DNA of 64,000 nucleotides from the IMG/VR virus record IMGVR_UViG_3300037042_007115. The stretch is one strand, 5' to 3'. This stretch comes from a virus. Its lineage: Duplodnaviria; Heunggongvirae; Uroviricota; Caudoviricetes. Below the pieces are notes generated by a model that worked only from the letters and a program-made list of their open reading frames with translations, ran no database searches and was not told the DNA's origin. The number at the start of each line of letters is the position of its first letter. Positions within the stretch are counted from its first letter, which is position 1. Positions 32,959 through 63,418 of this stretch are shown here, piece by piece. Made by a program: the position numbers and the translations under genes.

Positions 32959-33582
32959 TTAGGTTTGGTGCAGGATTAAGTCGAGATCTTGTAGGACTTT
33001 ATCAAATACTTGAACGTGAGTAGAATTTTCGGTGCTAATTTGGATTACTATGTTAGTGAAAGCACATTCCCGGTAGAACTTTTGGTAGTTAGCTTCTACT
33101 TTTGCTAAGAAATTAGCCTTCTCATAATTATCAATTGTAGTCCTAGAGGCTGCTCGGATACGGGCTTCTGATGTTTCTGGCTTAGCTGTGAGGTGGATAA
33201 CTACATCAGGAGGCAGGATCCATGAGCCATTATAGATATTCCAGAGCCAGATATCCGGGTGCTCCATGTATCCTTCAAGCGTAGCAGTCTGATAGGCAAG
33301 ATGTGAGTGTAGATACCTATCAGTGATAACTATTTTTCCTTTAGCTAAGGCTGGTTTTACTACATTCTCAATATGGTGCCTATGGTCAGCTGCGAATAGC
33401 AAAGCAGAAAGAACCTCATCATTCTGGTTAATGCACTGTTTAATGAGGTTTCTGTACCCGGTATCTGAAGGCTCCCTGCTAAAGACTGCTTGGTTACCCC
33501 TTAAAGCATCTCTCAATAGCTCTACTAAGCCGGATTTGCCTGTTCCATCTACTCCTTCAATTGCAATAATTATTGAACTCAT
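32959..33582 (-). CDS. tmk: thymidylate (dNMP) kinase
   Basis: IAIEGVDGTGKSGL P-loop and overall dTMP-kinase layout, including an R-rich lid region. Confidence 0.7.
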   Translation of the reverse strand: MSSIIIAIEGVDGTGKSGLVELLRDALRGNQAVFSREPSDTGYRNLIKQCINQNDEVLSALLFAADHRHHIENVVKPALAKGKIVITDRYLHSHLAYQTATLEGYMEHPDIWLWNIYNGSWILPPDVVIHLTAKPETSEARIRAASRTTIDNYEKANFLAKVEANYQKFYRECAFTNIVIQISTENSTHVQVFDKVLQDLDLILHQT

Positions 33583-42660: not shown

Positions 42661-44859
42661 TTAGAAGAGGGAGTTATTCTTTAAAGTGTCAACAAGAAGT
42701 GTCGCCACATCTTTCTTATCTTTGAGCGCCTTTAAAACAACCTCGTCAATTGTGCCAGCAGCCAAAATGTGGATGTAGTTAACTTTGTTAACCTGGCCAA
42801 TGCGGTGGGCACGGGCTCTTACCTGATCATACCCAGCAAAGGAGTAGTCTAAGGAGAAAAAAACCATCGTAGAGGCCCTGTGTAGAGTAATACCTGTGCC
42901 CCCCGTTGCTATCTGCAAAATTAATACATTGGGGTTGTCTTCCTCTTGGAATTTCCTAACCAACTCACCGCGATTCTGCGTTGCTCCGTAAAATGTTGCT
43001 GCTGTGCGTCCTGCTTCTTCACATACCTTTTTAATTGCTAACAATTCGGGAACAAAGCGGGCTACGATAATTAATTTCTTGTCTTTTGGGAAATCTTCTA
43101 CGAGTTCCTTGAGTACCTTAAGTTTTTCACTTCCTACTTCTACCGGGTTGCCGGTTTCCTGAGGTAAAAAGCCCCCTGTAATTTGACTCAACCTCAGTAA
43201 TTGTGTTAAAACAATAGGTGCTGTTACTGAGTCGCCACCTTTGATGGTAGCTACCATGTTTTTTTCCATTTCATCATATATCTTCTGTGATTCATCAAGG
43301 TAGGCATAGAGGTTTTGGTCAGTTGTCTCGGGTAAGTCAAGTGCTTCCGCTTTGGTCATTCGATAAGACACAGAATGAGCTTTGGCTGTAAGTGTTTCTA
43401 AGTTTTTGAACCCTACTACAGAGTGATTCATGTACCCGCCCATAATTGCATACTGGTCGCGGTATTTCGGAAAGCTTTTCCCAAAAATTCGGCTATCTAA
43501 AAATCGAAATTGGCTAAAAAAGTCCATCGGGCCTTGTGAGATAGGAGTTCCTGTAAGGATAAGTCTGTATTTGGCTACTGCACCAATAGCTGTGCATCCC
43601 CTGGACTGGTTAGCCTGCCCATTTTTAAGGTTCTGGCTTTCATCGGCTAGCATAAGGTCCGGGGCCCAGTGGATTAACTCAGGTTGAAGTCTCCAAGCTG
43701 ATGCATAGTTAATGATCATAACAATTAATGCCCCATCTGGTGAACTTGCTTCGAGGATAGCTTCTTTTTTCAGAGACATTTTCCGCTGGTCCATAGTAAT
43801 AGTCCTGAAGGGGAAGTCTGCAAATTTTTCAAACTCCGCTTTCCAGACTGGGAGAACACTCTTGGGGCAGACTATGAGTACTTTTTTAACCTGGCCATCT
43901 AAATATCTCTTTCCTATCACAGCAATACTTGCTGCAGTTTTCCCGCAGCCCATTTCAAGTAAGAGGGCGGAGTGGTCTAAGGTGGTGCTTAGTGCAAATG
44001 CTTTGCGCTGGTGGTCAAATAACTTAATCTTGAGTGGTACCGGGATGTCAGGTACTGCGCCTTCTTTGATGGCTTTGGCCTGGCGTTTCTGGTCCTGTTG
44101 AGCAAGGGCGTCTTTAGCCATCTTGTTGAAGAAGGTCCTTGCTGCTGGAGTGAGCTGGACATCATTGTTGTCCATCACTTTATTCCAGGCATCTACAACT
44201 TCTGCCACAGGTAAATATTTCCATTGCTTTGTTTCTGGCACCCAGCGCCTGTTGGGGATTGATTTTGCCTGCTCTTTGAATTCGAACGGAGAGGTGAGGA
44301 GTAAGTGCTCACCGTTGTAGTCTAACTCTACGGTGTTGTTCCTGACCTGGGGGGTGGGGAGAACTGTGTCGATGTTTATTGCATTGAGTACTTCTGCTGC
44401 TTTTGGCTCGATGTCTACAACGTTTGCTTCCTGAAGTCCTTTGATGGCTGCTACTGCAGCTATTGTCGGCTGTACTTCCCACTGCTTGATTTGCCCATTG
44501 AATCTTGCTGTAGGTATTGCCCTGAGATTTTCCCTATGGTCATAATGCGCGCGTATTTGGAACAGCTTGACTGTTGGGTTCCAGTCTACTAAGGGCTTTC
44601 CAGTTGATTCTACCGGTTTGGGTGGCTCCTGTATTGAGTCATAGTCAATGCCGAAGTTTGTAAGCTGCCTCTTGTACTTGCGAATCATAATATAAGCAGC
44701 CGATAGTTGGGCATCTGTCCAAGCTGGTTGACAGTGTAAAGTTCTTGCCCAACCAGTATCTCTACCATTAAAGCCCTGCCCATCCTCTGTTACTGCCCCA
44801 TCACATACCGAAAGGAGTGAAGAGATTGCTTCCCTAACTTGGTCTTCAGTTTTTGACAC
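42661..44859 (-). CDS. SNF2-family (DEAD/DEAH-like) helicase with N-terminal extension
   Basis: Motif I LLEMGCGKTAASIA. Motif II LMLADESQNLKN. C-terminal helicase domain with LHRASTMVFFSLDYSFAGYDQVRARAHRIGQ. Likely start is a GTG (VSKTEDQ...) with GGGGAG 8 nt upstream. The track's first ATG would extend the gene to 44919. Confidence 0.75.
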   Translation of the reverse strand: MSKTEDQVREAISSLLSVCDGAVTEDGQGFNGRDTGWARTLHCQPAWTDAQLSAAYIMIRKYKRQLTNFGIDYDSIQEPPKPVESTGKPLVDWNPTVKLFQIRAHYDHRENLRAIPTARFNGQIKQWEVQPTIAAVAAIKGLQEANVVDIEPKAAEVLNAINIDTVLPTPQVRNNTVELDYNGEHLLLTSPFEFKEQAKSIPNRRWVPETKQWKYLPVAEVVDAWNKVMDNNDVQLTPAARTFFNKMAKDALAQQDQKRQAKAIKEGAVPDIPVPLKIKLFDHQRKAFALSTTLDHSALLLEMGCGKTAASIAVIGKRYLDGQVKKVLIVCPKSVLPVWKAEFEKFADFPFRTITMDQRKMSLKKEAILEASSPDGALIVMIINYASAWRLQPELIHWAPDLMLADESQNLKNGQANQSRGCTAIGAVAKYRLILTGTPISQGPMDFFSQFRFLDSRIFGKSFPKYRDQYAIMGGYMNHSVVGFKNLETLTAKAHSVSYRMTKAEALDLPETTDQNLYAYLDESQKIYDEMEKNMVATIKGGDSVTAPIVLTQLLRLSQITGGFLPQETGNPVEVGSEKLKVLKELVEDFPKDKKLIIVARFVPELLAIKKVCEEAGRTAATFYGATQNRGELVRKFQEEDNPNVLILQIATGGTGITLHRASTMVFFSLDYSFAGYDQVRARAHRIGQVNKVNYIHILAAGTIDEVVLKALKDKKDVATLLVDTLKNNSLF

Positions 44860-44970
44860 GATAAGTTCTCCCCTGTAAATTTGTACTAGGTTATAGTGAT
44901 ATTTGCTGTGGATGCACATATACTTAGCCCCTTAGTGAGGCTTATTTGGTTTGGGGGTATATATACATTA

Positions 44971-45438
44971 ATGACAACTGAGGAGAAGACTGAGAGTTAT
45001 TTACCCGGGGTATTTGTCGCTATAGTTCTGATAGTTCCCACCATGCTAATCCTGGCCATTGTTGCTTGGGGCATATATTCTCCTATTCCCTTTATGGCTG
45101 AGTTTAACAAATTAACATATGTAAATACCACAGCCCTTGTGCCAGACACCCAGATTACTTATAGTATATCAGAGGATTATCCTAGCGGATTTTTTTCTAA
45201 GGTTTTAGCTATCTCGGACTCTAATCGCCATGAGTATTATTCAGTGCGAGTTGTTGAGGGCCCAGATTTTGGGAGTATGCTCCCTATTCCGCCAAAAGAA
45301 GTAGTTAATCAATCTGGGGGTTCAGAATCTATTGTTTTACATCATCATTTGAACCCATGTACTTTTACTCGCCTTGTTATTACTACAGAAGCTAGTTATT
45401 TTATCAAGGATTTTCCACAAACTGCTGTGTGTGGGTAA
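44971..45438 (+). CDS. membrane protein (short + strand island)
   Basis: Track ORF is 44896..45438. Start is moved to the ATG at 44971 (MTTEEK...) to avoid overlap with the SNF2 start. One TM helix. Confidence 0.3.
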   Translation: MTTEEKTESYLPGVFVAIVLIVPTMLILAIVAWGIYSPIPFMAEFNKLTYVNTTALVPDTQITYSISEDYPSGFFSKVLAISDSNRHEYYSVRVVEGPDFGSMLPIPPKEVVNQSGGSESIVLHHHLNPCTFTRLVITTEASYFIKDFPQTAVCG

Positions 45439-45441
45439 GTA

Positions 45442-45993
45442 TCAATTCTTGAGCTTGGTCATTTCTGCTGACTTGCTGACCCTGGTGTGGATTTCATTCA
45501 GCTCATTAAGCTCTTTGGTAAGACCTTCAATAATGCCTATCCGGCTCTGGGAAGTATCATTCAGCATTTCAATGATCTGTTCCTGCTTGTGTTCAATACT
45601 AGCCATAATAAGGCAAGCTTCATGGTGGTTCACAGCAATGAGTGGTAGCCGAATAAGCTCAACAAGTTCATCTGCCCACCACTTAACTTCATGGAGACCA
45701 GAACTGTGGCCATTTTCCCAGGCAATCCGGTATAAGATATCCCGCATTGGGTGGTTCTCAATATTTAACTCTTTGAACAACTGTTCTTTGAAGCGTTTTT
45801 CTTCCTCAGCTTCAAGTTTGCGGGCTTCAATAAGAGCGGCCCTTTCTTCTTCAGTAAGTTTTCTCATAATTTCACCTGTTATACCTAACAGTGTGCTGTG
45901 AAACCAATTAAATATAGTTAAAACAGAGAAAAAGAGATTAGATGTCGGTTTCTGGGTCTTGTGGATCAACTGCTGCAGGGGTAGGTGCCCCAT
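45442..45993 (-). CDS. hypothetical coiled-coil protein
   Basis: 183-aa ORF. Confidence 0.4.
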   Translation of the reverse strand: MGHLPLQQLIHKTQKPTSNLFFSVLTIFNWFHSTLLGITGEIMRKLTEEERAALIEARKLEAEEEKRFKEQLFKELNIENHPMRDILYRIAWENGHSSGLHEVKWWADELVELIRLPLIAVNHHEACLIMASIEHKQEQIIEMLNDTSQSRIGIIEGLTKELNELNEIHTRVSKSAEMTKLKN

Positions 45994-46444
45994 CTACCTC
46001 AGCTGCACCCTCCGGTGATTCATCATAGTGAATCGGTGCCTGGTCTACAACTTTAGCTTTGATAGTGCCGTTGTACTCCTCATGGTCTACTTCAACATTC
46101 ATCTGGGCCCCAGCCAGCTTTTTGAGGTCTACCTGCATTGAACTTGTTGGAACCTTGACGCCTAGTGCTTCCAATGACTTTCTAAATCCGAAGAGAGCGT
46201 GTGGCTGCAGGGAATTGTTCAAGTAGAGACGCCGGCCCATGAATTCACCGTTGAGAATTTCAAAGGTAAAGACAACCATCGGCTGATTTGCAGCACTCAT
46301 CTTTGCTACGGCTGACACAACCTTGACCTGGTAGATACCTTTCTCTACAAGACCTGAGTTGCTAGTCTGGCCGAAATCAACCTTGACTACACTTCCAGAA
46401 ATGGTTGATGGGGCCGGTTCTGCCCCTTTCTGTGTTGGGCTCAT
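45938..46444 (-). CDS. putative ssDNA-binding protein (DUF669-like), partner of the Sak4-like ATPase
   Basis: 168 aa, beta-rich with an acidic C-terminal tail. Lies directly downstream of the Sak4-like gene, as in phage DUF669-Sak4-Cas4 modules. Confidence 0.4.
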   Translation of the reverse strand: MSPTQKGAEPAPSTISGSVVKVDFGQTSNSGLVEKGIYQVKVVSAVAKMSAANQPMVVFTFEILNGEFMGRRLYLNNSLQPHALFGFRKSLEALGVKVPTSSMQVDLKKLAGAQMNVEVDHEEYNGTIKAKVVDQAPIHYDESPEGAAEVDGAPTPAAVDPQDPETDI

Positions 46445-46755
46445 TCTAGTTTCTCCCCGGGGGCCTCATCTACATCTGTCCAGAGAGTGAAGTGCATTGC
46501 AATACCCACGATGAATACCATCCACATTACGGCAATCTGGGTAAGATACATATTACGAGTTACAAGATCCGTGATACTGGGGAGAGTATTTAAGTAGATA
46601 GTCGTCATTCCAGTAGCGATAAGACCTACTCCAATTAGGAGTACAGTTGGGGTCAGGATATTGAAGAGTTTTCTTGCAAGACCCTTAACCGTCTTAGTAG
46701 TTTTCTTGATCATGGTTTCCTCCAAAGAAGCTCTGTTGTGCCATGGGCACCCCAT
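46441..46755 (-). CDS. membrane protein
   Basis: 104 aa, two TM helices. Confidence 0.4.
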   Translation of the reverse strand: MGCPWHNRASLEETMIKKTTKTVKGLARKLFNILTPTVLLIGVGLIATGMTTIYLNTLPSITDLVTRNMYLTQIAVMWMVFIVGIAMHFTLWTDVDEAPGEKLE

Positions 46756-46796
46756 TCTTCATAACAATATGGTTCCCCGAACCTAATAAAGGTTCT

Positions 46797-47672
46797 TTAA
46801 TTAGTTGGGGGGTTATTCACATGCGGTTCTTCTAATACCGGGATAGGAGCTTTAGGCGATATGGCCTTCATCAGCTTGTCATAGGTTGGGTCATTGATAG
46901 AGTTCGGTAAAATTATGCTTTTTGCCTTTCTAACTTTAGTTAAATACAGCGCATGAGGACCGATTCTGAGTCTAAAGCTGTAAATCTTCTCAGTTTTACC
47001 ATCAGAAGTTACTTTTACAAACTCTTTGATATAGGTGTTGCCTATGATTTTGACCGCGGCAGTGAGAGATGCTGCGACACTAGGGCTTAGCCTGGGGCCA
47101 ACTTCCTGAATTACCTGGTCTTCATTTGCATTTTCCTCTTCATCAGTGCTTCTATCTTGAGCTGTGAAGACAGTGTGCATGGGTAAGTCTCGATAATTAA
47201 TGAGCCAGGCACTTAAGAGGTGAGCAACCTGACCCCAGAGGCTTCGGTTCATTACTCCATTTTTTTCCTTACCATTCTGCTCTAGGATATACTCCCGGGC
47301 AAACTTCTGCAGCATGGTTACGGTATCCACAACCACTGTTTTATACGGGTGATTGCCGGCACGCAGGAACCAGTACATAGTTTCAAAGTCTTCCCAGTTC
47401 TCTACCCGGAAACCCTTCCCTCCTACAACATCTGAGACAGAGGAGGTCCCCTTCTCTGCTATATCTAGGAAGATTACCGGTCCCGGGAAGGTACCAGCAA
47501 TTGTAGTTTTACCCGTACCAGACCGGCCATAAAGGAGGACAGATTGAGGTCCATCCATGTCAGCTAGTGACTGGATCCGAGATTCTATATCTTTCATTCT
47601 CTCAGGATTACTGAGCGAGAGTATTGGATCTTCAACTTTGGTCTTCATCATCTGAACCTTCCTGGATTTCAA
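46797..47672 (-). CDS. RecA-fold ATPase, Sak4-like
   Basis: Walker A VLLYGRSGTGKTT. Walker B-like hhhhD at VVVDTV. Confidence 0.65.
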   Translation of the reverse strand: MKSRKVQMMKTKVEDPILSLSNPERMKDIESRIQSLADMDGPQSVLLYGRSGTGKTTIAGTFPGPVIFLDIAEKGTSSVSDVVGGKGFRVENWEDFETMYWFLRAGNHPYKTVVVDTVTMLQKFAREYILEQNGKEKNGVMNRSLWGQVAHLLSAWLINYRDLPMHTVFTAQDRSTDEEENANEDQVIQEVGPRLSPSVAASLTAAVKIIGNTYIKEFVKVTSDGKTEKIYSFRLRIGPHALYLTKVRKAKSIILPNSINDPTYDKLMKAISPKAPIPVLEEPHVNNPPTN

Positions 47673-48720
47673 CTAGCTCTTCTTTAGCACCCTTGAGTTT
47701 ATAATCTCTGCTGATGATAAATTCAGCATCTAAGTCAAAGAGCTCTGCCCGGCAAAGAGATGCAAATGAGCAACCCTTACAGGTGAAGGGAGATAGGGCC
47801 CTTGTCTTCTTTGTTCTACCTTGCTCCACAATTTCATGGGCAGATTCTAGGAAGTCACTCACCACTTCATTAATAACATGCTGTGATGGTGCTGGGAAAT
47901 ATACCCGCTTATAGAAGTTATCTTGCTTTACCCTAAGGCTATTTAAGATATCTTGGTAGTCTTCTTGCTGTAAGCCCAGCCGGTTAATCTCTCCTAGGTA
48001 AACATGGTAGGTAGAGTCAATGTTCTTTCTCTTTGTTAAACCGCCGTTCTTAAGTTGCTCAGGTACCGTCGGTGCTTTGGTCCTTAAATAGTCCCAACAG
48101 ATGCCAGCAGGCTTAGGGTAGCCAGCTTTGGGTAAGGCCCAAACGTATAAGATGGCCTGGAGGGCCGAGAGTCTTACCTCATCATCTGGTATTTTCTTAG
48201 CGGTCTTATGCTCAACAACCCAGATGTTTCCTTGGGTGTCTTCTGCTGGAGCATCCATAAAACCCTTGAACTTCGCTCCTGGAAATAGCTCGAACTCGAG
48301 AGGTAACTCACTGTGTCTAAGAACATCAATCGTGGTACCATCTTCCTGTTTCTCTTTAACAGTGAATGGAAGATATTTGATTCTGTCGTTTTCATACTTT
48401 CTACAGTATCCATCAAAGATTTTCCTGATATCACCGGGGATATCACCGAATTCTTCTTGCTCTTCACTGAAGAGTTTTGCATACTCTTTTTCATACTTGA
48501 GTATTATGGGCTCTGTAGGCTGCTTTTCAATCCTAGCTTCCATAAGTTCATGTATGATTTTACCTCTTACCAGGGGTATAGGCTGGGATTTTTTCTCCAG
48601 CTTCATAACCCATTTGTAAAAGTGTTCCCGGGGGCAACGTCTCCAGACTTTTACTCGACTATAGGAGATGTTCTCAACGTGGATATCTCCTTCTTTTCGC
48701 ACGGGCGCTACTAATTCCAT
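47632..48720 (-). CDS. Cas4-like PD-(D/E)xK exonuclease with Fe-S cysteines
   Basis: N-terminal Cys (WRRCPREH), C-terminal CKGCSFASLC four-Cys pattern, and a central D...EhK core (WVVEHKTAKK). Confidence 0.65.
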   Translation of the reverse strand: MELVAPVRKEGDIHVENISYSRVKVWRRCPREHFYKWVMKLEKKSQPIPLVRGKIIHELMEARIEKQPTEPIILKYEKEYAKLFSEEQEEFGDIPGDIRKIFDGYCRKYENDRIKYLPFTVKEKQEDGTTIDVLRHSELPLEFELFPGAKFKGFMDAPAEDTQGNIWVVEHKTAKKIPDDEVRLSALQAILYVWALPKAGYPKPAGICWDYLRTKAPTVPEQLKNGGLTKRKNIDSTYHVYLGEINRLGLQQEDYQDILNSLRVKQDNFYKRVYFPAPSQHVINEVVSDFLESAHEIVEQGRTKKTRALSPFTCKGCSFASLCRAELFDLDAEFIISRDYKLKGAKEELVEIQEGSDDEDQS

Positions 48721-51546: not shown

Positions 51547-54500
51547 TCATTCACTCCCCCAATCCCCGAAGTGTGTATCTGTTACAATGGGTACTGTAAG
51601 ATTCACCCCCAACTTGGCCAATAGTGGCGGACACTCTATGAGCTTCTTTATCTCGGGTAGAAGTTTATCTGCTATATCATCACGTATTTCCATAAGGATA
51701 GCATCATGAATAGTTCCTACGATGTTTAATACATCCTTTCCATAGGTCGTACTTAGTGCAACCACAGCCATCATCGTCATATCACTTGCAAATCCCTGAA
51801 CAGGCGCGTTTATTGAGTTGCGTTCTGCCTGTGCACGTACTCCCTCATCGGGTGACATAATCTCCGGCAGGTGTCTAATACGCCCATCAAGGCATTTTAC
51901 CTGTCCATACTGCCTTACCATCACTTTTTGCCGCTGGTGCCACTTTGGAAGCTCAGAATAGGTTTCAAAGAACCTCTGTCTAAATGCGGTAGCTTCCTCT
52001 ATTGTGAGGTCCGTTTCATATTTATCCCGGGCGTATTCCTGGAACTTCTTCTCCCGCATGCCGTAAAGGAACCCAAAATTACAGTTTCCCTGTATTCCCA
52101 CTTTATTGTCTCTTCTTATAACGATATTTTCTGCCTGGACTTGTACACAATATGCCATATGACTGCCGGGTATCTTTTGGAAGCTTAGGTGTGTTCTCGA
52201 GTCGAGTCGTCCGCCGGGCCTATAGGTAATTTTGTACCCCTCAGTTCTTTTCTTATCTCTAGGGGGCATAACATATAGTACTGCTCGTGTCCCAGAAGTA
52301 CAGGCCATAGCTTGCATTATATCCGCACTTTGTCGAACATGTGTAGTAAATTTTGTATATTTTTGAGCAAATTTTTCACTTGACCAAGAGTCCCAGTAAG
52401 CTGCTTCATCGAGATAAACTATTGCCGGGATGTCTGTTAGGCAGGACCAGGAGAGATTTTTATTATCATCAAGATACGGCTTTATCATCCCCATAATTTT
52501 CGGTGAGTTCATTTCAAAGATAGTTGCTCCATCAGCCCTTGTTCTACGGGTATAACTTACCCCATAGGCATCTAGAAGTTGTTTACATCTGTCTATTTTG
52601 TGCTGCTTTTTAAACCCAAATCTAAGGCGGGTGTGGTCTTTAAATGACCCATCAGCTGCGATCATAGCTAAGATTCGAGTTTCAGTTTCTGTTAGTTTAT
52701 ACTCCGTTCTTTTAAGGAGCCCAGCAGAGAATAGATAAGTATTTTGAGGAACTGAATCTGCGCGCCTCTTCTCTACACGTTCCGTGTTCCTATTGAAATA
52801 CAAAATTTCGTGATCTGCTGTTACTAATAGATCATTATTTCTATCTATGAAACTATACAGCTCTCTATTATTTTGGGATTGAAAAGCTATAGGCTTAGTA
52901 AACGATATTTCTTGCGTTTCTTGGAAATACTGCGCTACTTCATCTGTGCCATTATATTTATCAAATCTTACCCAACCGGCTTTTGTGAGTATTTCAGTAT
53001 CCCCTGAGAAGCATGCCTTGGCTTTCTTTCGCTCATCCTTAGTAATTAGCTCAGGGGGTTTTCCAGTGATAAGGGAAGCTGTCTTCCGGTGTATGTCGCC
53101 CTTCGGGTCATTGAAGATACCTATCATTGTTGGGTCCCCGCTTACCATAGCTGCTATCCTAAGCTCAACTTGGGAGTAATCACACTCTAATAGTCTCCAT
53201 CCTGGTGGGGCGCCTATAAGAGTTCTAATCTTTTTGTCACGTGGAACCTGCTGGAGGTTAGGGTCACTACATGAATTATGAACACAGAGCTCATTTGCTA
53301 TAAAATTATGCGTATCTTCTACCTCTATATCATACACAGGGAAGATTCCCGGTAGTTTCTCCACATAAGTAATCATATGATTCTGGGGCTTGGGCTTGGC
53401 GTTATCTGGTAGTTTGGCCAGTGTTCGGGTCCTACCATAAACTACTCTAGCTTCCTTAGTTTTACTTACAGTTTCCCCAGTAAAATGTAAATAGTTATAA
53501 TCACCGCGTGACCTATGCAGGGCCATAACATGCTCCCCATGATGATATCGTTTTCTCCATTTGATATATTTTCCCCCCGCTAGATCTTCTACTTTGATAT
53601 AACTTCCGGAGGTTAACCGAATTGGGTGGTTCCCTGTAGCATCCAGAAAACCCTCAGTATGCCCCCCTTGCCCCACCCAATGCACTCTATAACAGGGCTT
53701 GCTGCCCGTAAGCCCAGAACTCTTGACTTTTTTCAAAGTTAACTTTAATTCATCATCAAACGAATATACTAAGTCTCCCGTCTTTATATCTTGGATGGGC
53801 CTAGTTCCACCCGGTATCATGACTTCTGTACCTTCTCTTAAGCAGAGTCTGCCAGTAACGGTCCCGTGCAGCTTAAAGTTAGGATGTAGTCTTTCGTGCG
53901 GACCTAAGAATTTCTTCCACCCCTCAATAAAGCTCGATACCTGCTTAGCCAGCTCCCTATGTTTGAGTAATAAATCAATTCCTTCGTGTTGACCTTTCAG
54001 TCGTTGAAGAATACCTTCTGCAGTAGAGGGTGCACCAGACTTAGTAAGTTCTAATGGTACCAACTTCCAATCCTCGAATAAGATCTTACCAACCTGCTTA
54101 GGACTGTTCCAGTTTACCCCAGGAGCCATAGCCTCTAGTTTATCATGTACCTCAGCGAGTTCAGCTTTAAGGACAATTTCCAGTGCGGCTAGACGCTCTT
54201 TATGGACGAATACGCCATGACACTCAATATCTTCAAAGGCTTCAAACGCCGGCATAATAAGGAACTTAAAAAGCTTAAGGAGATCAGCATTCTTCATTAA
54301 CTGACCACGCTGCATTTTATATAACCTGAGAGTGTACAAAACATCATAGCCACAATACTCATACATCTTCTCTAGGTCTGGGCCTTGTCCTCTTTTATCT
54401 TCAGATGAGATATCATAAGCTGGAGCATTAAGATGAACCTTAGCCAGATACTTTAGGCCACATGGCTCATTCTCATTCAAGATATGGGCTGCCATCATGG

Positions 54501-55419
54501 TATCAAAAGTAATTGGGAACCTAATATCATAGTGTACCCGGAGCCACCTATTATCAAACTTCCCATTCTGAGTGACAATCTTCTTGCCTTTCATCATAAG
54601 TAAGATTTCTTGGAGGCCTTCCTTCATGCCACCTTTAGTCTTGAAGATAAGATTCTCACCAGACATAGGCAGCACCCACTGTCTCTCCTGTGTCAGCTCA
54701 TTATCCGCATATCTGGAGATGCCCAAACAGTTAATATCTGCGCCTTCTTCTCTCGGGTCTAAACAAGTGGTTTCTAAGTCAAAGCCAATTACTGGGCAGT
54801 CTTTGAGGTCATGCAGCATTTCTTTGAACTGCTCTACATTTCTTATGATAGTAAGGTTTAAGCCGGTACTAGGCTTCCAGGTACCATTGATTATTTCAAA
54901 GAACTTTTTCATATCTGATTTAAGCGGGGCTTCTTTCTTTGGATCCCGGAGTGCTGCAGCTGGATGAAATGCAGGTAAGTATGTTATACCCTCTTTTTCA
55001 ATAGGAACCCCATGAATATCCATAATCCCGCTGGCTCCTTTGCCTAAGACGCCTTTTAAGGCTACCGCACCCATAACAATGATGAATTTAGGTTTAACCT
55101 CATCTATTTCTCTTTGAAGATGCACCTTACATGCTTTAATTTCAGCTTGTGTAGGAGATTCATTTTCAGGTGCAGAACAGTGAATTAAATGAGTCAAATA
55201 AAGGGTATCTCTACTTACTCCATTCTCCATCAAAATTCGGTCTAGGAGTCGCCCGGCATTTCCGGGGAAGGGTTTTGTAAGCTCTGATTTATAATTAGTG
55301 GGTGCCTCCCCTATTATCATAACATTACAGGGGGTAGGGCCCTGGCCCATAACGCATACTAACGGGGAACTTGCATACCGGGTGCAAAGTTTGCAACTTG
55401 AATCTCCAAAAACAGGCAT
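51547..55419 (-). CDS. family-A DNA polymerase with N-terminal family-4 UDG-like domain and 3'-5' exonuclease domain, interrupted by two inteins
   Basis: UDG-like region: CKLC Fe-S Cys pair, GEAPT (GE[AG]PG-like motif A), F.GNAGRLL, HPAAALR (HPSxxLR-like motif B). Exonuclease motif I IGFDLETT. PolA pre-motif A TGRL//SCSDPNLQQVP. Motif A CDYSQVELRIAA. Motif B RKKAKA//CNFGFLYG. Motif C IHDAIL (HDA rather than HDE). Confidence 0.9.
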   Translation of the reverse strand: MPVFGDSSCKLCTRYASSPLVCVMGQGPTPCNVMIIGEAPTNYKSELTKPFPGNAGRLLDRILMENGVSRDTLYLTHLIHCSAPENESPTQAEIKACKVHLQREIDEVKPKFIIVMGAVALKGVLGKGASGIMDIHGVPIEKEGITYLPAFHPAAALRDPKKEAPLKSDMKKFFEIINGTWKPSTGLNLTIIRNVEQFKEMLHDLKDCPVIGFDLETTCLDPREEGADINCLGISRYADNELTQERQWVLPMSGENLIFKTKGGMKEGLQEILLMMKGKKIVTQNGKFDNRWLRVHYDIRFPITFDTMMAAHILNENEPCGLKYLAKVHLNAPAYDISSEDKRGQGPDLEKMYEYCGYDVLYTLRLYKMQRGQLMKNADLLKLFKFLIMPAFEAFEDIECHGVFVHKERLAALEIVLKAELAEVHDKLEAMAPGVNWNSPKQVGKILFEDWKLVPLELTKSGAPSTAEGILQRLKGQHEGIDLLLKHRELAKQVSSFIEGWKKFLGPHERLHPNFKLHGTVTGRLCLREGTEVMIPGGTRPIQDIKTGDLVYSFDDELKLTLKKVKSSGLTGSKPCYRVHWVGQGGHTEGFLDATGNHPIRLTSGSYIKVEDLAGGKYIKWRKRYHHGEHVMALHRSRGDYNYLHFTGETVSKTKEARVVYGRTRTLAKLPDNAKPKPQNHMITYVEKLPGIFPVYDIEVEDTHNFIANELCVHNSCSDPNLQQVPRDKKIRTLIGAPPGWRLLECDYSQVELRIAAMVSGDPTMIGIFNDPKGDIHRKTASLITGKPPELITKDERKKAKACFSGDTEILTKAGWVRFDKYNGTDEVAQYFQETQEISFTKPIAFQSQNNRELYSFIDRNNDLLVTADHEILYFNRNTERVEKRRADSVPQNTYLFSAGLLKRTEYKLTETETRILAMIAADGSFKDHTRLRFGFKKQHKIDRCKQLLDAYGVSYTRRTRADGATIFEMNSPKIMGMIKPYLDDNKNLSWSCLTDIPAIVYLDEAAYWDSWSSEKFAQKYTKFTTHVRQSADIMQAMACTSGTRAVLYVMPPRDKKRTEGYKITYRPGGRLDSRTHLSFQKIPGSHMAYCVQVQAENIVIRRDNKVGIQGNCNFGFLYGMREKKFQEYARDKYETDLTIEEATAFRQRFFETYSELPKWHQRQKVMVRQYGQVKCLDGRIRHLPEIMSPDEGVRAQAERNSINAPVQGFASDMTMMAVVALSTTYGKDVLNIVGTIHDAILMEIRDDIADKLLPEIKKLIECPPLLAKLGVNLTVPIVTDTHFGDWGSE
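52084..53013 (-). mobile_element. intein 2 (310 aa) with LAGLIDADG-type homing-endonuclease domain, inserted in PolA motif B
   Basis: Residues 803-1112: N-terminal CFSGDTEILTKAG (block A), ILAMIAADGSF (LAGLIDADG), C-terminal ...VGIQGN, with +1 Cys. Removing it restores RKKAKACNFGFLYG. Codon-level check: the Cys-1 codon TGC lies at 53011..53013 on the - strand. Confidence 0.7.
53275..53844 (-). mobile_element. mini-intein 1 (190 aa) inserted within the PolA TGRL|SS motif
   Basis: Residues 526-715: N-terminal CLREGTEVMIPGG (block A), GFLDATGNHPI (block B, T..H), C-terminal VYDIEVEDTHNFIANELCVHN, with +1 Ser. No endonuclease domain. Removing it restores TGRLSCSDPNLQQVP. Confidence 0.75.
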
Positions 55420-56118: not shown

Positions 56119-56391
56119 TTAGTCTCCTACTGCCTCTATTACTAAATTTCCGTCTAGTTTTCCTTTCGGAAATATAGTATTTGATTCATAGAAAAAGATT
56201 TTATCTCCATCTACAATCTGTAGCACGGGAGCTTCTACAGCAAAACAGCCCTCTACTCGAAGATCAGTGATAGCTGCCGGTTCTTCCATGTTAGCCTCTG
56301 TGAAGGCCATTTCAGCACCACCTAAGAAGCTCTTCAGTTCATCACACCTTGGGCAGCAGGGCAAGGAATAAACAGTAATTTTTCTTATCAT
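56119..56391 (-). CDS. glutaredoxin/NrdH-like thioredoxin-fold protein
   Basis: ITVYSLPCCPRCDELKSFL carries a CPxC redox motif in thioredoxin-fold context. Confidence 0.5.
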   Translation of the reverse strand: MIRKITVYSLPCCPRCDELKSFLGGAEMAFTEANMEEPAAITDLRVEGCFAVEAPVLQIVDGDKIFFYESNTIFPKGKLDGNLVIEAVGD

Positions 56392-57575
56392 GATCCACCT
56401 GAACCGTTGATTTCTCCACTAGGGATTAAAAATCCCCCCGTTTGGATAGTGGGGTAGGGGTCAAGCAGGAGTTTCCACTTATCAGTCTTATACCCTAAGG
56501 TACTGGCGATAAGTGTCCCGGGAAAATAAGCTGTAGCTCCCATATATTCACGAACAGCTAAATTATACTCTGCCCGTATATAGGGGTTTTCAGGATCTTG
56601 GGCAAGCTGACTTGCTACCTTAAGTACTTCCGCATCTTTAGCATAGATAGTATCATAGGTATAGATGAAACTCATACCTATAACAAGCAGTAGTGCTGCA
56701 ATTATTACCATTGCTAAATATGATCGGTTACTAGCACTAATGTTTACCATGATCCTACCCATACCGGGGAATTCACAGTTTTCAATTTCAGAGGCAGCAT
56801 CAGACAGATCTTGGGCTAGTTGCTCAAGCTCATCAGCAAAGCTATTGAGGTCTTTCCCATCATATTCCGGGAATGAGAGGTTATCCAGGGTGCTCACGGC
56901 ATTCTCAAGTGTGTCTGCTGTCTCACTTACCGTCTGCATTTTGTCGGTGTTCTCAAGGTTGGTGCCCTGAACATTGTCACTCCAGCTTCTCATCTCATCC
57001 GCAAGGTCCTGGACCTCACTGGTAGAGAAGGCTTCATCGAAGAGTGTGCTGATTCGTGAGATTTCCTCATCAATATCCTCAGCAAGTTGTTCAAAGTCTG
57101 CTCCGTCCTCTTCATCTTGAGAGTCAGCTTCCGGCTCAGTTGCTGGCACAGTTTCAGGTTTTACTTCTGGTTCTGGTTCCTCTTCTGTTTCTTCATCTTC
57201 AAGTTGCTTTGCAAGTTCTCGAAGCGTAGAAACTGCTCCATCTAGTTCTTCCCCAAGCATTGTGAGGGCGCCTGCTGCATCTGCTGCGCGTGAAGCACGG
57301 CTGTGGCTTTTCTTTTTCCGTCGCTTCCTCTTCTTTTTCTCCTCAGATACTGGAGCTTCTTGGGTTATTAGTTCCGGGGTAGCTTCTGGCCTCGGGGGTT
57401 TGACATATCCTAAAGCATCTAGCTTATCCCGTACTGTGTTTAGTTCATCCAAGATTGCCTCTTCATTTTCCTGCATCTGGGGCGTTCCGGCATTCTGGTT
57501 CACATTAAGTTTAAAGGCGGCGACTAGTTCGGCCTCTAACTTTAAGAGTTCTTCAATTGTGTTTGGTAGTTCCAT
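56388..57575 (-). CDS. acidic coiled-coil protein with polybasic patch and one TM helix
   Basis: 395 aa. EEKKKRKRRKKKSHSR patch, long Asp/Glu-rich region, TM helix YLAMVIIAALLLVIGMSFIY. Confidence 0.45.
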   Translation of the reverse strand: MELPNTIEELLKLEAELVAAFKLNVNQNAGTPQMQENEEAILDELNTVRDKLDALGYVKPPRPEATPELITQEAPVSEEKKKRKRRKKKSHSRASRAADAAGALTMLGEELDGAVSTLRELAKQLEDEETEEEPEPEVKPETVPATEPEADSQDEEDGADFEQLAEDIDEEISRISTLFDEAFSTSEVQDLADEMRSWSDNVQGTNLENTDKMQTVSETADTLENAVSTLDNLSFPEYDGKDLNSFADELEQLAQDLSDAASEIENCEFPGMGRIMVNISASNRSYLAMVIIAALLLVIGMSFIYTYDTIYAKDAEVLKVASQLAQDPENPYIRAEYNLAVREYMGATAYFPGTLIASTLGYKTDKWKLLLDPYPTIQTGGFLIPSGEINGSGGS

Positions 57576-60074: not shown

Positions 60075-60509
60075 TTATTCCGGTAAAGGTGCCTTTTTAG
60101 TTCTTTTAATAAATTCTACAAGTTTAGGATGAAGTTTTCTAAGGACTACTAAAAACTGTGCGTCAGACTTATAGTAATGTACAGGTTTATAGGAGAGCGT
60201 AGTGTACTCGGGTCTCATCTTAAAATACTCCAGGGCCCCCATAGGTAGTCCTTTCTGGGTCGGAGGTATATAGTCCCAAATAAGGGTAGCATATTCCCCG
60301 GAGCTTCCTGGAGTGGGCTCAGCAAAGAACCTGATCTCATAGACGCTGCGACCAAACTCAGCATAAAAATCTCTTGATGGGTAGAAGCCTAAGAGGTCGC
60401 CCTCCAAGTGTGTCTGTCGAGAGTCTAGGAATTTTTGGAACCTATCCCAGATAACTTGAGATTTATGGTTTAGGTTCAAAAATAGTAAATTATTGTCTAT
60501 TTCGAGCAT
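60075..60509 (-). CDS. hypothetical protein
   Basis: 144-aa ORF. Confidence 0.4.
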   Translation of the reverse strand: MLEIDNNLLFLNLNHKSQVIWDRFQKFLDSRQTHLEGDLLGFYPSRDFYAEFGRSVYEIRFFAEPTPGSSGEYATLIWDYIPPTQKGLPMGALEYFKMRPEYTTLSYKPVHYYKSDAQFLVVLRKLHPKLVEFIKRTKKAPLPE

Positions 60510-61066
60510 GAGATAATACGATTCGGTGTGTAAAGATATACTTTGATACCCGCTTCTATTAGTAACTCTATGCCATCAGTTTTTCGGTACTTTTCCAAGA
60601 AGTATACTGACGAGATACCAGAATTAATTAGTAATTTTGCACAATCGAGGCATGGGGATAGACTACACCACAACTCTGCTCCTTCTACAGAGATACCATG
60701 TCGGGATGAAAAAGCTATTGCATTGCTTTCTGCATGTATTGTTCTGATACATCCACCATTTTCTCCAATTTTACACCCCACATCTATGCAGTGAGGTAAT
60801 CCACTAGGAGATCCACCATAGCCCATAGAGATGATTCGATTTTCTCTTACTATTAAAGCAGAGACTTGGGCTCTTGTGCAAGTAGACCTCTTTTTTACTA
60901 CTTCAAGGATCCCTACAAACATTTCTGCTCGAGATAGGCGAGTTTTTCTTGTAAGGTCAGTTTCAGGTTCATTATTGTGGTTGCATGGGGTTGTTATAGA
61001 GCATGAGCAAAGGTCCCGTTTAAACACTGGTGGATGACGGGCTGCTGCTTTTTTAGCCATAACCAT
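60497..61066 (-). CDS. dCMP deaminase (cytidine/deoxycytidylate deaminase family)
   Basis: HAESNAI (zinc-binding H/CAE) and SPCLDCAKLL (PCxxC). Confidence 0.7.
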   Translation of the reverse strand: MVMAKKAAARHPPVFKRDLCSCSITTPCNHNNEPETDLTRKTRLSRAEMFVGILEVVKKRSTCTRAQVSALIVRENRIISMGYGGSPSGLPHCIDVGCKIGENGGCIRTIHAESNAIAFSSRHGISVEGAELWCSLSPCLDCAKLLINSGISSVYFLEKYRKTDGIELLIEAGIKVYLYTPNRIISCSK

Positions 61067-61545
61067 TATTCATCATCCTCTGGGTCTACCCCTTCATTTT
61101 CAAAATCTTCTGCCTCTGTTTCGGGTTCTGATAATTTTCCTGGACTTGTAGTGGGCCGAGGAGCAGCCGCTTCAGCTTGAGCTTTTTTAGCCTTTCGTAC
61201 CAATCTCCTTTCCTTCCTGCGGCGTTTCTTCTCTTGTTCCTTGTCTTCATCTAATTCTTGTGTTTCTGCTACAGCTTTTGGAATTGGCTCACTTAATACT
61301 TGTGGTACTGCGGGAGTTACTGGAGCAGGTATAGATATATTTGCTTCTTCTGGAATTTCTTCACCTTCATCTGGTTTTACATTAAGAGGTAGTGTTCCTG
61401 TTACATGGGGCTTTCCAGACCGAGTTTGTTTAATTCGGGCTAGGGCAGTATCCCAACTGCCCACTACCGTATGGCTACTTCTGGGGAATGGATAATGGAG
61501 GGAAATATTTTCTGTCTGCTGGAAGACCTCTTGGGGTTGTTCCAT
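61066..61545 (-). CDS. low-complexity acidic/basic protein
   Basis: 159 aa with KKRRRKERRLVRKAKKAQAE patch and acidic termini. Confidence 0.35.
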   Translation of the reverse strand: MEQPQEVFQQTENISLHYPFPRSSHTVVGSWDTALARIKQTRSGKPHVTGTLPLNVKPDEGEEIPEEANISIPAPVTPAVPQVLSEPIPKAVAETQELDEDKEQEKKRRRKERRLVRKAKKAQAEAAAPRPTTSPGKLSEPETEAEDFENEGVDPEDDE

Positions 61546-62228
61546 TAGAATACACCTTTCCCATCCTTCTTGAAAAGGTGCAGACTCATTACGAAATGAG
61601 TAAAGCGGCCAACTCTATAACCTGTCTTTTCTGCGATGTATCTTTGCATCATCACCGCCAGATAAACATCATTGTTGTAGTGGGTTGCAAAGTCACAAGA
61701 CCTTTGAATATAGGTCAAGTGAAGTAGTCCGCTACGAATCTGGATTTGATAGCCAATGGTACAGGGTATACGAGACACTCCGCCCATATACTGAATGTCA
61801 CTGGGTTGATACACTGCTAAAAAGAGCTGCCTGGAGTCTGGATCTACTTTAATTCTTTTGATGATACGTTCAATCTGGTCATACTGTGCAAATCTTTCCG
61901 GGTAGTTATAACCAAACTTCCCATCAGCACATCTAAATTCAGTCCAGACTTCCTTCCTGAGTTCCCAGGCCTCTCCGGGGTTTACCGGGGGTCTAGTAAT
62001 TCTTTCCCTGAATTCCGCATCGGCCCAAGGCTGTGTCGGAGTGAGATCCTCTGTACGCGGGTTTATAACCGTATAGGTATAATTCTGGATCTCAAGAGTG
62101 TCAAACGCCGGGTCATGCTCGACTATTTTGTCCTGATAAGATTTGGGGTGGATTTTTATCCCCATCTCAACCAGGTCTCTTTTGATTTCGCCAAGTGCTT
62201 CCTTTTTGAAATCAACATAAATTCGCAT
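61545..62228 (-). CDS. thymidylate-synthase-family (ThyA fold) pyrimidine-dNMP C5-methylase or hydroxymethylase
   Basis: IPCTIGYQIQIRSGLLHLTYIQRSCDF aligns residue-for-residue with ThyA [26 protein letters not shown] (catalytic Cys, RSxD phosphate-binding). Downstream HYNNDVYLAVMMQRY aligns with ThyA PFNIASYALLVHMM. No ThyX RHRxxS motif. Confidence 0.65.
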   Translation of the reverse strand: MRIYVDFKKEALGEIKRDLVEMGIKIHPKSYQDKIVEHDPAFDTLEIQNYTYTVINPRTEDLTPTQPWADAEFRERITRPPVNPGEAWELRKEVWTEFRCADGKFGYNYPERFAQYDQIERIIKRIKVDPDSRQLFLAVYQPSDIQYMGGVSRIPCTIGYQIQIRSGLLHLTYIQRSCDFATHYNNDVYLAVMMQRYIAEKTGYRVGRFTHFVMSLHLFKKDGKGVF

Positions 62229-62232
62229 TAAA

Positions 62233-62640
62233 TTACTCCCCCTTGGGGATTATGGGTTTTTTCTTTTTATTCATTACACCCCGGCTTAGATTTTCTACTG
62301 ATAAAATATGTCTTATCATTTGATCCGGGTCACTTTTTGATACAGATCGGAATGTATTAGAAGTATCATCTTCTTTAATTTTAGAATAGGAAATAATTAC
62401 TTGGTCTCCTACCATAAACATACTTATAATTCCAGAAGAAGCAAAAAATCTTTTTCCATTCTCTAGATAGACTAGGCCACCCTTGGTATCAACTAGGTAT
62501 TTTTCTATTACTACGCCTATAGTAATTCCATATTTCTTTTTGGTGCTTGGTCGGAGGATGTAAAATAAGCACGTTCCAGCTAATATAGATCCACATATTA
62601 GAAAGGCGAGTGCTACCGGGCTAATTAACAGTTCTTGCAT
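62233..62640 (-). CDS. membrane-anchored hypothetical protein
   Basis: 135 aa with an N-terminal TM helix. Confidence 0.4.
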   Translation of the reverse strand: MQELLISPVALAFLICGSILAGTCLFYILRPSTKKKYGITIGVVIEKYLVDTKGGLVYLENGKRFFASSGIISMFMVGDQVIISYSKIKEDDTSNTFRSVSKSDPDQMIRHILSVENLSRGVMNKKKKPIIPKGE

Positions 62641-62647
62641 ACTTACC

Positions 62648-63418
62648 TCAGTAATTACTTGTTTGTCTGAATTGATTTACTTTGTTCTTACGGAAATACA
62701 GGTCATCCAGGCGGGCCGCATCAATATCATAGGCAATACAAAGAATGAAAAAGTTCTCCCAAGTATAGTAGAGATGCTGTTTGAAAAGATTTTCATCTGT
62801 AACCATGTGGGTATTTTTCCATACCTTATTCTTTAAGGTGTTACACATAAGACCTAAAGAAGTAATTGTTCTTGACATTGCCTCATGCAAATCTCTCCGG
62901 GGCTTTCGGGCATGTACCCGTTCATGTGTGAGTAAATAAAAGATAGTTCCAAGAGGATCTTCCTGTTTCTCAGTACTAGACCCGCTCATAATACCATTAT
63001 ACACCTGTTCTGGAGTAACTCCGGCAAGAATAGTCAGTTCTGTTAAGAAGTGTAATGCATCTGCTACTTCTTCATGGACGTGGTCTAGTAATTCTGGGTG
63101 GATATCATATGCTTCCCGGGCCTCTGCAAGTTCTTCAGTTATACGCCATGCAAAGTCTTTTAATCTAGCTTGCCCAAAGCGGCAATGTAGACTAACAGGT
63201 ATATCTTTAGTTTGGAGGAGTCCATTTTTTTCCTCGATTTCTTCATACTTTTCCATAAGAAGTCTTTGCTTAGTGAATATTTCACGTAGTCGGTCTTCTG
63301 ATGCCGTGGTTTTTGAATCAAAATCTTGGACGTTCATGCTATCAGCTCCACAACTTTTTGCGGGTGTATATAACATGAGGTTTCCATCTATATATGTTTC
63401 ACTTTTTTCCCCGGCCAA
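62648..63418 (-). CDS. MazG-like / dimeric-dUTPase-like all-alpha NTP pyrophosphohydrolase
   Basis: EELAEAREAY and HEEVADALHFLTEL acidic helix motifs. Confidence 0.5.
   Translation of the reverse strand: MAGEKSETYIDGNLMLYTPAKSCGADSMNVQDFDSKTTASEDRLREIFTKQRLLMEKYEEIEEKNGLLQTKDIPVSLHCRFGQARLKDFAWRITEELAEAREAYDIHPELLDHVHEEVADALHFLTELTILAGVTPEQVYNGIMSGSSTEKQEDPLGTIFYLLTHERVHARKPRRDLHEAMSRTITSLGLMCNTLKNKVWKNTHMVTDENLFKQHLYYTWENFFILCIAYDIDAARLDDLYFRKNKVNQFRQTSNY

Follow-up and report, generated by a model that had tools for sequence, protein, structure and literature searches.

Does a phage family-A DNA polymerase that lacks the glutamate of the HDE motif still copy DNA, and what does a fused uracil-DNA glycosylase (UDG) domain do in such a polymerase? 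The textbook view of an invariant family-A HDE generalizes from Pol I, Taq, and T7. Both questions are raised by one gene in a 64,000-nucleotide stretch of DNA (hereafter, the window) from a virus of the class Caudoviricetes, IMG/VR record IMGVR_UViG_3300037042_007115. The initial annotation of the window, made from the sequence alone, described the gene product as a fusion of UDG-like, 3′-5′ exonuclease, and PolA-type polymerase domains, and asked whether the motif C sequence His-Asp-Ala means altered catalysis. Here, we report that Ala at this position is widespread among phage polymerases. In our preferred reading, to which we assign a probability of roughly three in four, the precursor would splice twice to yield an active replicase with proofreading, the Ala is the norm of its lineage and leaves DNA synthesis unimpaired, and the UDG domain would inspect the incoming template. 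The phage, a tailed one that is very novel and probably large, would then use the gene product as its replicative DNA polymerase.

Precursor and spliced product

The gene and its parts are arranged as follows, with positions given in the window and residues in amino acids (aa) of the precursor.

51547..55419, minus strand: complete precursor open reading frame (UDG, exonuclease, and PolA plus two inteins), ATG start, 1290 aa
54880..55419, minus strand: family-4 (Fe-S) UDG domain, aa 1–180, from Pfam, NCBIfam, and PDB alignments
54295..54855, minus strand: DEDDy 3′-5′ proofreading exonuclease domain, aa ~189–375, from Pfam and invariant columns
53845..54294, minus strand: polymerase extein part 1 (thumb, start of palm), aa ~376–525, ending ...HGTVTGRL
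53275..53844, minus strand: intein 1, a mini-intein in the TGR motif, aa 526–715 (190 aa), between TVTGRL and SCSDPNLQQVP
53014..53274, minus strand: polymerase extein part 2, aa 716–802, with SCSDPNLQQVP, motif A (LLECDYSQVELR), and the first half of motif B (...RKKAKA)
52084..53013, minus strand: intein 2, which splits motif B, aa 803–1112 (310 aa), between RKKAKA and CNFGFLYGM
51550..52083, minus strand: polymerase extein part 3, aa 1113–1290, with the rest of motif B (CNFGFLYGM), fingers/palm, motif C, and the C-terminus

The position, strand, and length of the gene agree with the initial annotation, and the strings quoted there (CKLC, GEAPT, HPAAALR, and IHDAIL) all occur in the translation. 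The tripartite organization was borne out by Pfam matches to all three domains: UDG (aa 25–166; E = 5.5e-24; 85.3 bits against a cut-off of 24.3), DNA_pol_A_exo1 (PF01612; aa 191–368; E = 2.5e-18; 66.9 bits against 23.6), and DNA_pol_A (PF00476; E = 7.4e-75; 252.7 bits against 34.3). The last match is broken into three stretches because the two inteins interrupt the polymerase. The Pfam Intein_splicing domain was also matched in the precursor, and PHROGs assigned the whole protein to phrog_17, DNA polymerase. Approximately 500 of the 1290 residues belong to the inteins, leaving a spliced extein of 790 aa; the initial annotation spoke of a spliced extein but left the two inteins and their size unstated.

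Structure prediction of the extein, which the initial annotation had proposed, gave a confident fold. The AlphaFold2 model, built from an alignment of 90 intein-free homologs, had a mean predicted local distance difference test (pLDDT) score of 92.1 and a predicted template modeling (pTM) score of 0.88, with no segment below a pLDDT of 50. Foldseek aligned the exonuclease and polymerase core of the model with the Klenow fragment and the Bst large fragment at TM scores of 0.85–0.89 (normalized to Klenow or Bst). The two domains are thus confidently predicted to adopt a Klenow-like fold.

An identical protein is encoded on a 58-kb Logan contig (SRR11849211_88257), a 98% identical homolog (P0001) lies on a 178-kb JGI contig, and an 81% identical homolog of 789 aa (P0002) is intein-free. 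Homology extended to hundreds of proteins, down to E = 0, so that the observation is far beyond chance, and the metagenomic protein database held more matches than those listed. Homolog frequencies given below refer to the best 120 homologs, 119 of them full-length, among a larger number of matches, and invariant columns refer to a family alignment (A1) of 91 sequences. Among deposited phages, at least 831 records aligned over at least 80% of the extein. UDG-PolA fusions do occur in phages, as the initial annotation held and as has been described (PMC10201439), but calling them a minority architecture understates their number. Identity to deposited phages was nevertheless 37–45% overall, with a best value of 44.5% for any phage record, and megablast of the gene against deposited phages found no nucleotide-level match. 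The UDG-exonuclease-PolA architecture is of an already described kind, of which the present protein is a divergent new representative.

Catalytic residues and motif C

The exonuclease and polymerase active sites are canonical in every column except one. In the exonuclease domain, the residues of Exo I (FDLET; D214 and E216), Exo II (D289), and Exo III (Y355-x3-D359) were all invariant in the family alignment. In the polymerase domain, motif A (LLECDYSQVELR) was aligned by phmmer with SADYSQIELR of Klenow, and its metal-binding Asp (D557) and steric-gate Glu (E562) were invariant. Motif B, the O-helix, is complete only after removal of intein 2 (RKKAKA/CNFGFLYGM); R607, K611, N614, F615, and G616 were invariant, and Y619 is also present. 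The remaining column is in motif C.

51700..51708, minus strand: motif C His-Asp-Ala (CAT GAT GCT), aa 1238–1240 of the precursor, H738-D739-A740 of the extein

When the protein was compared with PDB sequences by phmmer, IHDAIL (aa 1237–1242) was aligned exactly with VHDELV of Klenow, within an alignment that ran from the exonuclease domain through the C-terminus (IVGTIHDAILMEI opposite MIMQVHDELVFEV). The Glu that follows the motif C Asp in Klenow (E883) is absent and replaced by Ala740, so that the deviation initially annotated is real, with no HDE nearby. A realignment to a neighboring HDE can be rejected, because the Klenow alignment is unambiguous and H738 and D739, the equivalents of Klenow H881 and D882, were invariant. 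The same holds for a sequencing error or a peculiarity of this gene: the state is clade-wide and is shared by the independent assembly that encodes the 98% identical homolog.

All 119 full-length homologs carried HDA, HDS, or, in one case, HDC, and none carried HDE. Cultured relatives (phages Lebethron, Serbin, CP3, and SteamedHams) have HDA or HDS. So do N4 gp39 (HIHDAQY) and SPO1 gp31 (VHDSIV), the latter being the founding member and a replicase defined by genetics. When phage PolAs were sampled down the similarity ranking, HDS was found in the T5-like Serratia phage Slocum (L013), the Twortvirinae phage JS1, the UDG-less Microbacterium phage Gershwin (621 aa), and the Arthrobacter phage Riovina (L016), and HDA in RcTiptonus. 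HDE was found in the mycobacteriophages LeoAvram and Chandler and in the autographivirus CRP-227. The premise of an invariant HDE is thus wrong for phage family-A enzymes, and HDA gives no reason to suspect impaired catalysis. Judging from these sequences, loss of the third carboxylate seems to have arisen, or to have been inherited, across many phage PolA lineages. A strict tie between HD[A/S] and the UDG fusion was considered and rejected, since UDG-less Gershwin and Thermus phage Tt72 both have HDS.

Biochemical data on the Tt72 polymerase, which naturally has D615-S616, point the same way: its S616A variant, which reads DA, retains 76% activity, whereas activity falls to 4% in D384A and D615A (PMC9324360). 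The Tt72 enzyme resembles the present protein in naturally lacking the third carboxylate, although it has no UDG domain and belongs to a distant lineage. Klenow and Bst share with the present protein the exonuclease and polymerase fold, motifs A and B and the motif C Asp in register, and Phe at the motif B position that governs dideoxynucleotide (ddNTP) discrimination; they differ in having no UDG domain, no inteins, and HDE in motif C.

One could still argue that the change from Glu883 to Ala meaningfully alters the chemistry of the polymerase, for example its metal usage, lesion bypass, or tolerance of modified dNTPs. The strictness of HD[A/S] in the clade, with no reversion to Glu in 119 sequences, is in keeping with such an effect, as is the company of lineages that share the state: SPO1, with 5-hydroxymethyluracil in its DNA, SP15-like relatives, which bypass abasic sites, and Riovina, with a PurZ-like neighbor. 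However, T5-like and Twort-like replicases, whose DNA is ordinary, also show this state, the S616A change costs Tt72 only 24% of its activity (PMC9324360), and no covarying compensatory change was identified, the other catalytic columns being canonical. We regard altered chemistry as improbable and favor the reading that a large group of PolA lineages in phages normally has Ala where Klenow has E883, with synthesis predicted to be unimpaired. The main value of this result is corrective: HD[A/S] in a phage PolA should not be flagged as a sign of inactivation. As a separate observation, the polymerase gene of Riovina adjoins a PurA-like (PurZ-type) gene.

Inteins

Intein 1 starts with Cys1, contains block B (TGNH), has a canonical ending (...ELCVHN), and is followed by Ser at the +1 position. 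Compared with the 298–306-aa alleles at the same TGR site in three homologs (P0008, P0024, and P0030), it shows one clean deletion of ~116 aa, which removes the HNH endonuclease domain, and its splicing blocks are nearly identical to those of the HNH-containing alleles. Lacking this domain relative to the longer alleles, it is a natural mini-intein. Intein 2 has Cys1, block B (TADH), a LAGLIDADG-like motif (ILAMIAADGSF), the ending ...IQGN, and Cys at +1. It is 61% identical to the intein of another homolog (P0003); its penultimate residue is Gly and not the usual His, and the P0003 allele also ends in QGN. The +1 Cys takes the place of Val in intein-free alleles (KAKA-V-NFG), and motif B of the spliced enzyme is therefore predicted to carry a scar, Cys in place of Val.

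P0002, which lacks both inteins, confirms the boundaries: it reads through both sites (TVTGRL-SCSDPNLQ and KKAKA-VNFGFLYG). In close relatives, each of the two insertions is present or absent independently of the other. Profile matches were obtained to Intein_splicing, intein_Cterm, and intein_Nterm, along with a match to the AceL NrdHF intein. Taken together, the motifs, the insertion into host sites, and the intein-free alleles support the identification of both insertions as Hint-fold splicing elements, from which splicing itself would be expected. A third intein was seen in the homolog P0007: it is of the LAGLIDADG type, 362 aa long, and sits exactly at the UDG Fe-S ligand Cys81 (equivalent to ~55177–55179 in the window). 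The number of intein homing sites in the polymerase family is thus at least three, and each lies at conserved functional residues. For intein biology and engineering, these three sites (the UDG Fe-S Cys, TGR motif, and motif B) and the mini-intein that has lost HNH are of minor interest.

The UDG domain

The initial assignment of the N-terminal domain to family 4 is supported by profile searches of this region, with the NCBIfam family-4 model just short of its cut-off (see below). In addition to the Pfam match, NCBIfam gave a match to archaeal type-4 UDG (6.4e-35), and the best PDB matches were the family-4 enzymes of S. tokodaii (4zbx) and T. thermophilus (1ui0), with an E-value of 2.5e-26. 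Alignments with these two structures and with that of T. maritima (1l9g) ran from end to end (E ~1e-26 to 1e-23), whereas the alignment with UdgX was poorer. The domain also matched 9qhs_A, the structure of an SP15-like UDG-PolA (E = 1.2e-8).

Most functional residues of family 4 are in place. Cysteines of 1ui0, 4zbx, and 1l9g lie opposite the four Fe-S ligands, C9 and C12 (in CKLC), C81, and C97. Motif A (GEAPT, aa 37–41) keeps its Glu (E38) and changes its last Gly to Thr; this position is Gly in 84/120 homologs and Thr in 10/120, with close relatives among the Thr carriers. The stacking Phe (F51) is present, the catalytic Asn (N89 of the T. thermophilus enzyme) is N86 in SAPENESP, opposite PPQN of 1ui0 (Asn in 97/120 homologs), and motif B (HPAAALR, aa 152–158) provides H152. 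The four cysteines, E38, F51, N86, and H152 are conserved in the clade, and the full canonical set is kept in 79/120 homologs. Uracil is hydrogen-bonded in family-4 UDGs and UdgX by the His of motif B and the T-N motif Asn (PMC10359453), and it is the latter residue that differs here.

55189..55191, minus strand: codon of His77 (LTHLIHC), at the position of the uracil-recognizing Asn (N80 of the T. thermophilus UDGA, N91 of UdgX)

Asn fills this column in all three reference structures and in 103/120 homologs. Within the nearest subclade, seven proteins have Asn (P0002–P0006, P0008, and P0009), P0007 has Gln, and the present protein and its 98% identical homolog have His. A covalent binder of the UdgX type was rejected: the R-loop (KRRIH) is gapped, motif A reads GEAPT and not GEQPG, and the TIGR03914 score was 95.7 against 189.95.

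Is the domain, then, an active glycosylase? Because of His77, we put the odds that it actively removes uracil at about one half. The opposing view, along the lines of the uracil or modified-base sensor that the initial annotation had raised, is that the domain is dead or weakened and contributes structure or processivity, or senses a base without excising it, as has been suggested for N4-like UDG-PolAs. It draws on the His in place of the uracil-contacting Asn, on GEAPT instead of GEAPG, and on the fate of the domain elsewhere: N4-like enzymes have lost catalytic residues (PMC10201439), and among cultured relatives the domain decays in different ways: both Lebethron and Serbin have Pro for Asn, CP3 has lost motif A, and SteamedHams has a truncated domain. 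The fold thus appears to be kept clade-wide even where catalysis is clearly gone. Set against this are the four intact Fe-S cysteines, E38, F51, N86, and H152, the fully canonical set in most homologs, the ability of His, and of the Gln in P0007, to donate or accept hydrogen bonds to a pyrimidine, and the occurrence of GEAPT in close relatives that retain the uracil Asn. We consider a dead or weakened domain possible yet doubtful. The natural variants H, N, and Q at column 77 in the closest relatives offer a ready-made specificity series.

Relation to known UDG-PolAs

Described UDG-PolAs comprise N4-like enzymes with a dead UDG, the enzymes of SPO1, SP-10, and SP-15, phages in which a modified uracil replaces thymine, and an “unclassified” group with all UDG catalytic residues (Czernecki et al. 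2023, NAR, PMC10201439). AlphaFold models in the same study placed the UDG domain wedged between the exonuclease and polymerase domains, and nucleotide-modification and dUTP-processing genes were noted directly upstream of one “unclassified” UDG-PolA gene. For the SP15-like enzymes of YerA41 and phiLo, cryo-EM structures are available (including PDB 9QHS; Missoury et al. 2025, bioRxiv 10.1101/2025.03.26.645540). At a distance of five nucleotides ahead of the polymerase site, their UDG domain removes dU from the 5′ template strand, the polymerases bypass the abasic site and accept 5hm-dUTP, and phage PolX and ligase finish the repair (bioRxiv 10.1101/2025.03.26.645540).

By its features, the present protein fits the large “unclassified” group, which is not rare. 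Members of this group, such as the UDG-PolA of a Caldanaerobius polysaccharolyticus prophage, have the same domain order (UDG, DEDDy exonuclease, and PolA) and a similar length of ~790 aa, nucleotide-metabolism genes directly upstream, PD-(D/E)XK and AAA_24 genes downstream, and HD[A/S] in motif C. Cultured examples of this type include Pseudomonas phages Lebethron and PMBT14, Serratia phage Serbin, and Clostridium phage CP3. Unlike these relatives, the present protein carries two inteins and is only 37–45% identical to deposited phages; its UDG domain keeps all motif residues but the uracil-contacting Asn, whereas the UDG motifs of cultured relatives are more degenerate.

Membership in the SP15-like, N4-like, or SPO1-like subfamily was rejected, since the protein fails a defining feature of each. 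The SP15-like enzymes likewise have an N-terminal family-4-type UDG fused to exonuclease and PolA, but they are 1100–1300 aa long, with Inserts 1 and 2 and a C-terminal domain of ~80 aa, none of which is found in the 790-aa extein; the latter aligns to its residue 786 with residue 574 of the 580-residue Bst chain, leaving no extra C-terminal domain. N4-like PolAs (cluster 17) share the domain order and HDA, but the N4 UDG domain lacks motif A, the Fe-S cysteines, and motif B, which are largely intact here, and the BLASTP alignment with N4 gp39, 33% identical, covers only 186 residues in the region of the thumb, TGR motif, and motif A. SPO1 gp31, the founding case of “phage SPO1 DNA polymerase-related” UDG homology, has a UDG-like N-terminus, exonuclease, PolA, and HDS, as well as neighboring dUMP hydroxymethylase and dCMP deaminase-type genes. 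Its identity to the present protein is 25–30%, however, and its UDG-like domain lacks the Fe-S cysteines and uracil Asn. Both genes are interrupted, that of SPO1 at the RNA level by a group I intron with a homing endonuclease and the present one at the protein level.

The protein is a well-preserved and highly divergent representative of the still unclassified Fe-S UDG-PolA clade, a populous clade without a characterized member. Together with the pocket variant N77H and the double-intein organization, it is this clade that remains mildly interesting.

Proposed mode of action

We propose the following course of events. The 1290-aa precursor would be translated and the inteins excised at TVTGRL/SCSDPNLQ and KAKA/CNFGFLYG, leaving the 790-aa enzyme. 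This enzyme would combine a Klenow-like polymerase, with motifs A and B intact, D739 in motif C, and hence both metal-binding Asp residues, with a DEDDy exonuclease, and both are predicted to be active. The N-terminal Fe-S UDG domain, probably docked rigidly on the exonuclease and polymerase core, may scan the single-stranded 5′ template a few nucleotides before the polymerase site and remove uracil, by analogy with SP15-like YerA41 and phiLo. The resulting abasic site may then, by the same analogy, be bypassed and repaired. Products of neighboring genes (dUTPase-like, thymidylate synthase-like, dCMP deaminase, and dTMP kinase; see below) would control the pyrimidine dNTP pool for the polymerase. 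The protein could also serve as a test case of whether the template-scanning dU excision of SP15-like enzymes is general.

Several points weigh against this reading. The uracil-contacting Asn is His77, which makes glycosylase activity or specificity uncertain, and motif A ends in Thr and not Gly. The NCBIfam model TIGR00758 (UDG_fam4) scored 123.9 bits, 1.4 bits short of its cut-off of 125.3. Intein 2 has Gly instead of His at the penultimate position, and its profile matches are only weak; we infer efficient splicing because the P0003 allele keeps the same ending. Template scanning is transferred by analogy, since the SP15-like UDG-PolAs studied belong to a different subfamily with inserts and a C-terminal domain. 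Neither PolX nor an AP endonuclease was recognized in the window. Finally, activity is predicted from sequence for both the present protein and its immediate clade, the nearest cultured phage being at most 39% identical.

Genome context

The polymerase gene lies within a replication module that spans 42661–63418. The features recognized in and near this module are as follows.

60497..63418, minus strand: pyrimidine-nucleotide module upstream of the polymerase gene and on the same strand (dUTPase_2, thymidylate synthase-like, and dCMP deaminase)
62648–63418, minus strand: dUTPase_2/NTP pyrophosphohydrolase
61545–62228, minus strand: divergent thymidylate synthase homolog, 227 aa
60497–61066, minus strand: dCMP deaminase
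42661..48720, minus strand: replication/recombination module downstream, with the gene order of cultured relatives
47632–48720, minus strand: PD-(D/E)XK nuclease
46797–47672, minus strand: AAA_24/Sak4-like ATPase
45938–46444, minus strand: DUF669 protein
42661–44919, minus strand: SNF2 helicase
32959–33582: dTMP kinase homolog

The order kinase, dUTPase, thymidylate synthase, deaminase, UDG-PolA, nuclease, and ATPase is common to Serratia phage Serbin, Pseudomonas phage Lebethron, and Gordonia phage SteamedHams. This is therefore a conserved replication module, which is padded here with many ORFans, approximately 15 of them small genes that separate the deaminase from the polymerase in the window.

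The thymidylate synthase homolog is of particular relevance to the genome chemistry of this phage. It keeps the catalytic Cys and reached at best 68 bits, against cut-offs of 108–427 for the ThyA equivalogs, and it matched thymidylate synthases and CMP hydroxymethylase in the PDB about equally. As it fits both enzyme types about equally, synthesis of dTTP and of 5-hydroxymethyl-dUTP (hm-dUTP) cannot be told apart from the sequence, and the homolog may act as a dUMP hydroxymethylase instead of as a dTMP synthase.

These genes could be read as a sign that thymine in this phage is replaced by 5-hydroxymethyluracil or a hypermodified derivative, and that the UDG-PolA incorporates hm-dUTP and keeps unmodified dU or dT in check, as in SPO1, SP-10, SP-15, and YerA41. 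The polymerase gene lies just downstream of genes for a dUTPase_2-type enzyme, a very divergent thymidylate synthase, and a dCMP deaminase, with a dTMP kinase homolog elsewhere; the same set of enzymes makes hm-dUTP in SPO1-type phages, and the four UDG-PolA phages just named carry modified thymine. Yet an identical set also yields ordinary dTTP, and the thymidylate synthase homolog, with its catalytic Cys, is no better a match to CMP hydroxymethylase than to thymidylate synthases. Moreover, none of the thymidine-hypermodification genes looked for (5-HMUDK, aGPT-Pplase, and glycosyltransferase) was recognized in the window. Gordonia, Serratia, and many other phages with this module have been sequenced routinely, and we know of no report of modification in them. 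Replacement of thymine is therefore unlikely in our view.

It is more doubtful still that an altered specificity of the UDG domain is linked to a non-canonical pyrimidine. In its most specific form, N77H would re-tune base recognition such that the tethered glycosylase polices something else than plain uracil, for instance by telling thymine or dU from a modified pyrimidine that the upstream thymidylate synthase-like enzyme produces. We hold this to be very improbable; if true, the enzyme would proofread the template of an uncultured large phage whose genome chemistry is non-canonical. Our preferred reading remains that of a replicase supplied by a pyrimidine-nucleotide module.

Several further observations concern the surroundings of the module. 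An ATP-dependent DNA ligase gene (DNA_ligase_A_M/C; L001 1–353) lies ~1.1–1.4 kb past the right end of the window, upstream of the nucleotide-metabolism cluster; co-occurrence of a ligase with UDG-PolA has been noted for SP15-like and SPO1-like phages. Just upstream of the polymerase gene (56388–57575, minus strand) is a gene for a 395-aa protein with a long, highly acidic, low-complexity middle, a Lys/Arg patch, and a C-terminal hydrophobic segment, for which no family match was found. From 1 to 41000 of the window, almost all open reading frames lacked a Pfam or PHROG match; a PHROG scan of ten left-hand open reading frames gave essentially nothing, and an exact-protein look-up of one gene from this part found no record. 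The phage is very novel and possibly large, as the 98% identical polymerase sits on a contig of 178 kb. The exceptions in the left part are genes for a 596-aa Band_7 protein (31083–32873), the dTMP kinase, a 149-aa NrdD-like fragment (~24590–25039), and an SprT/YgjP-like protein (~23263–23859).

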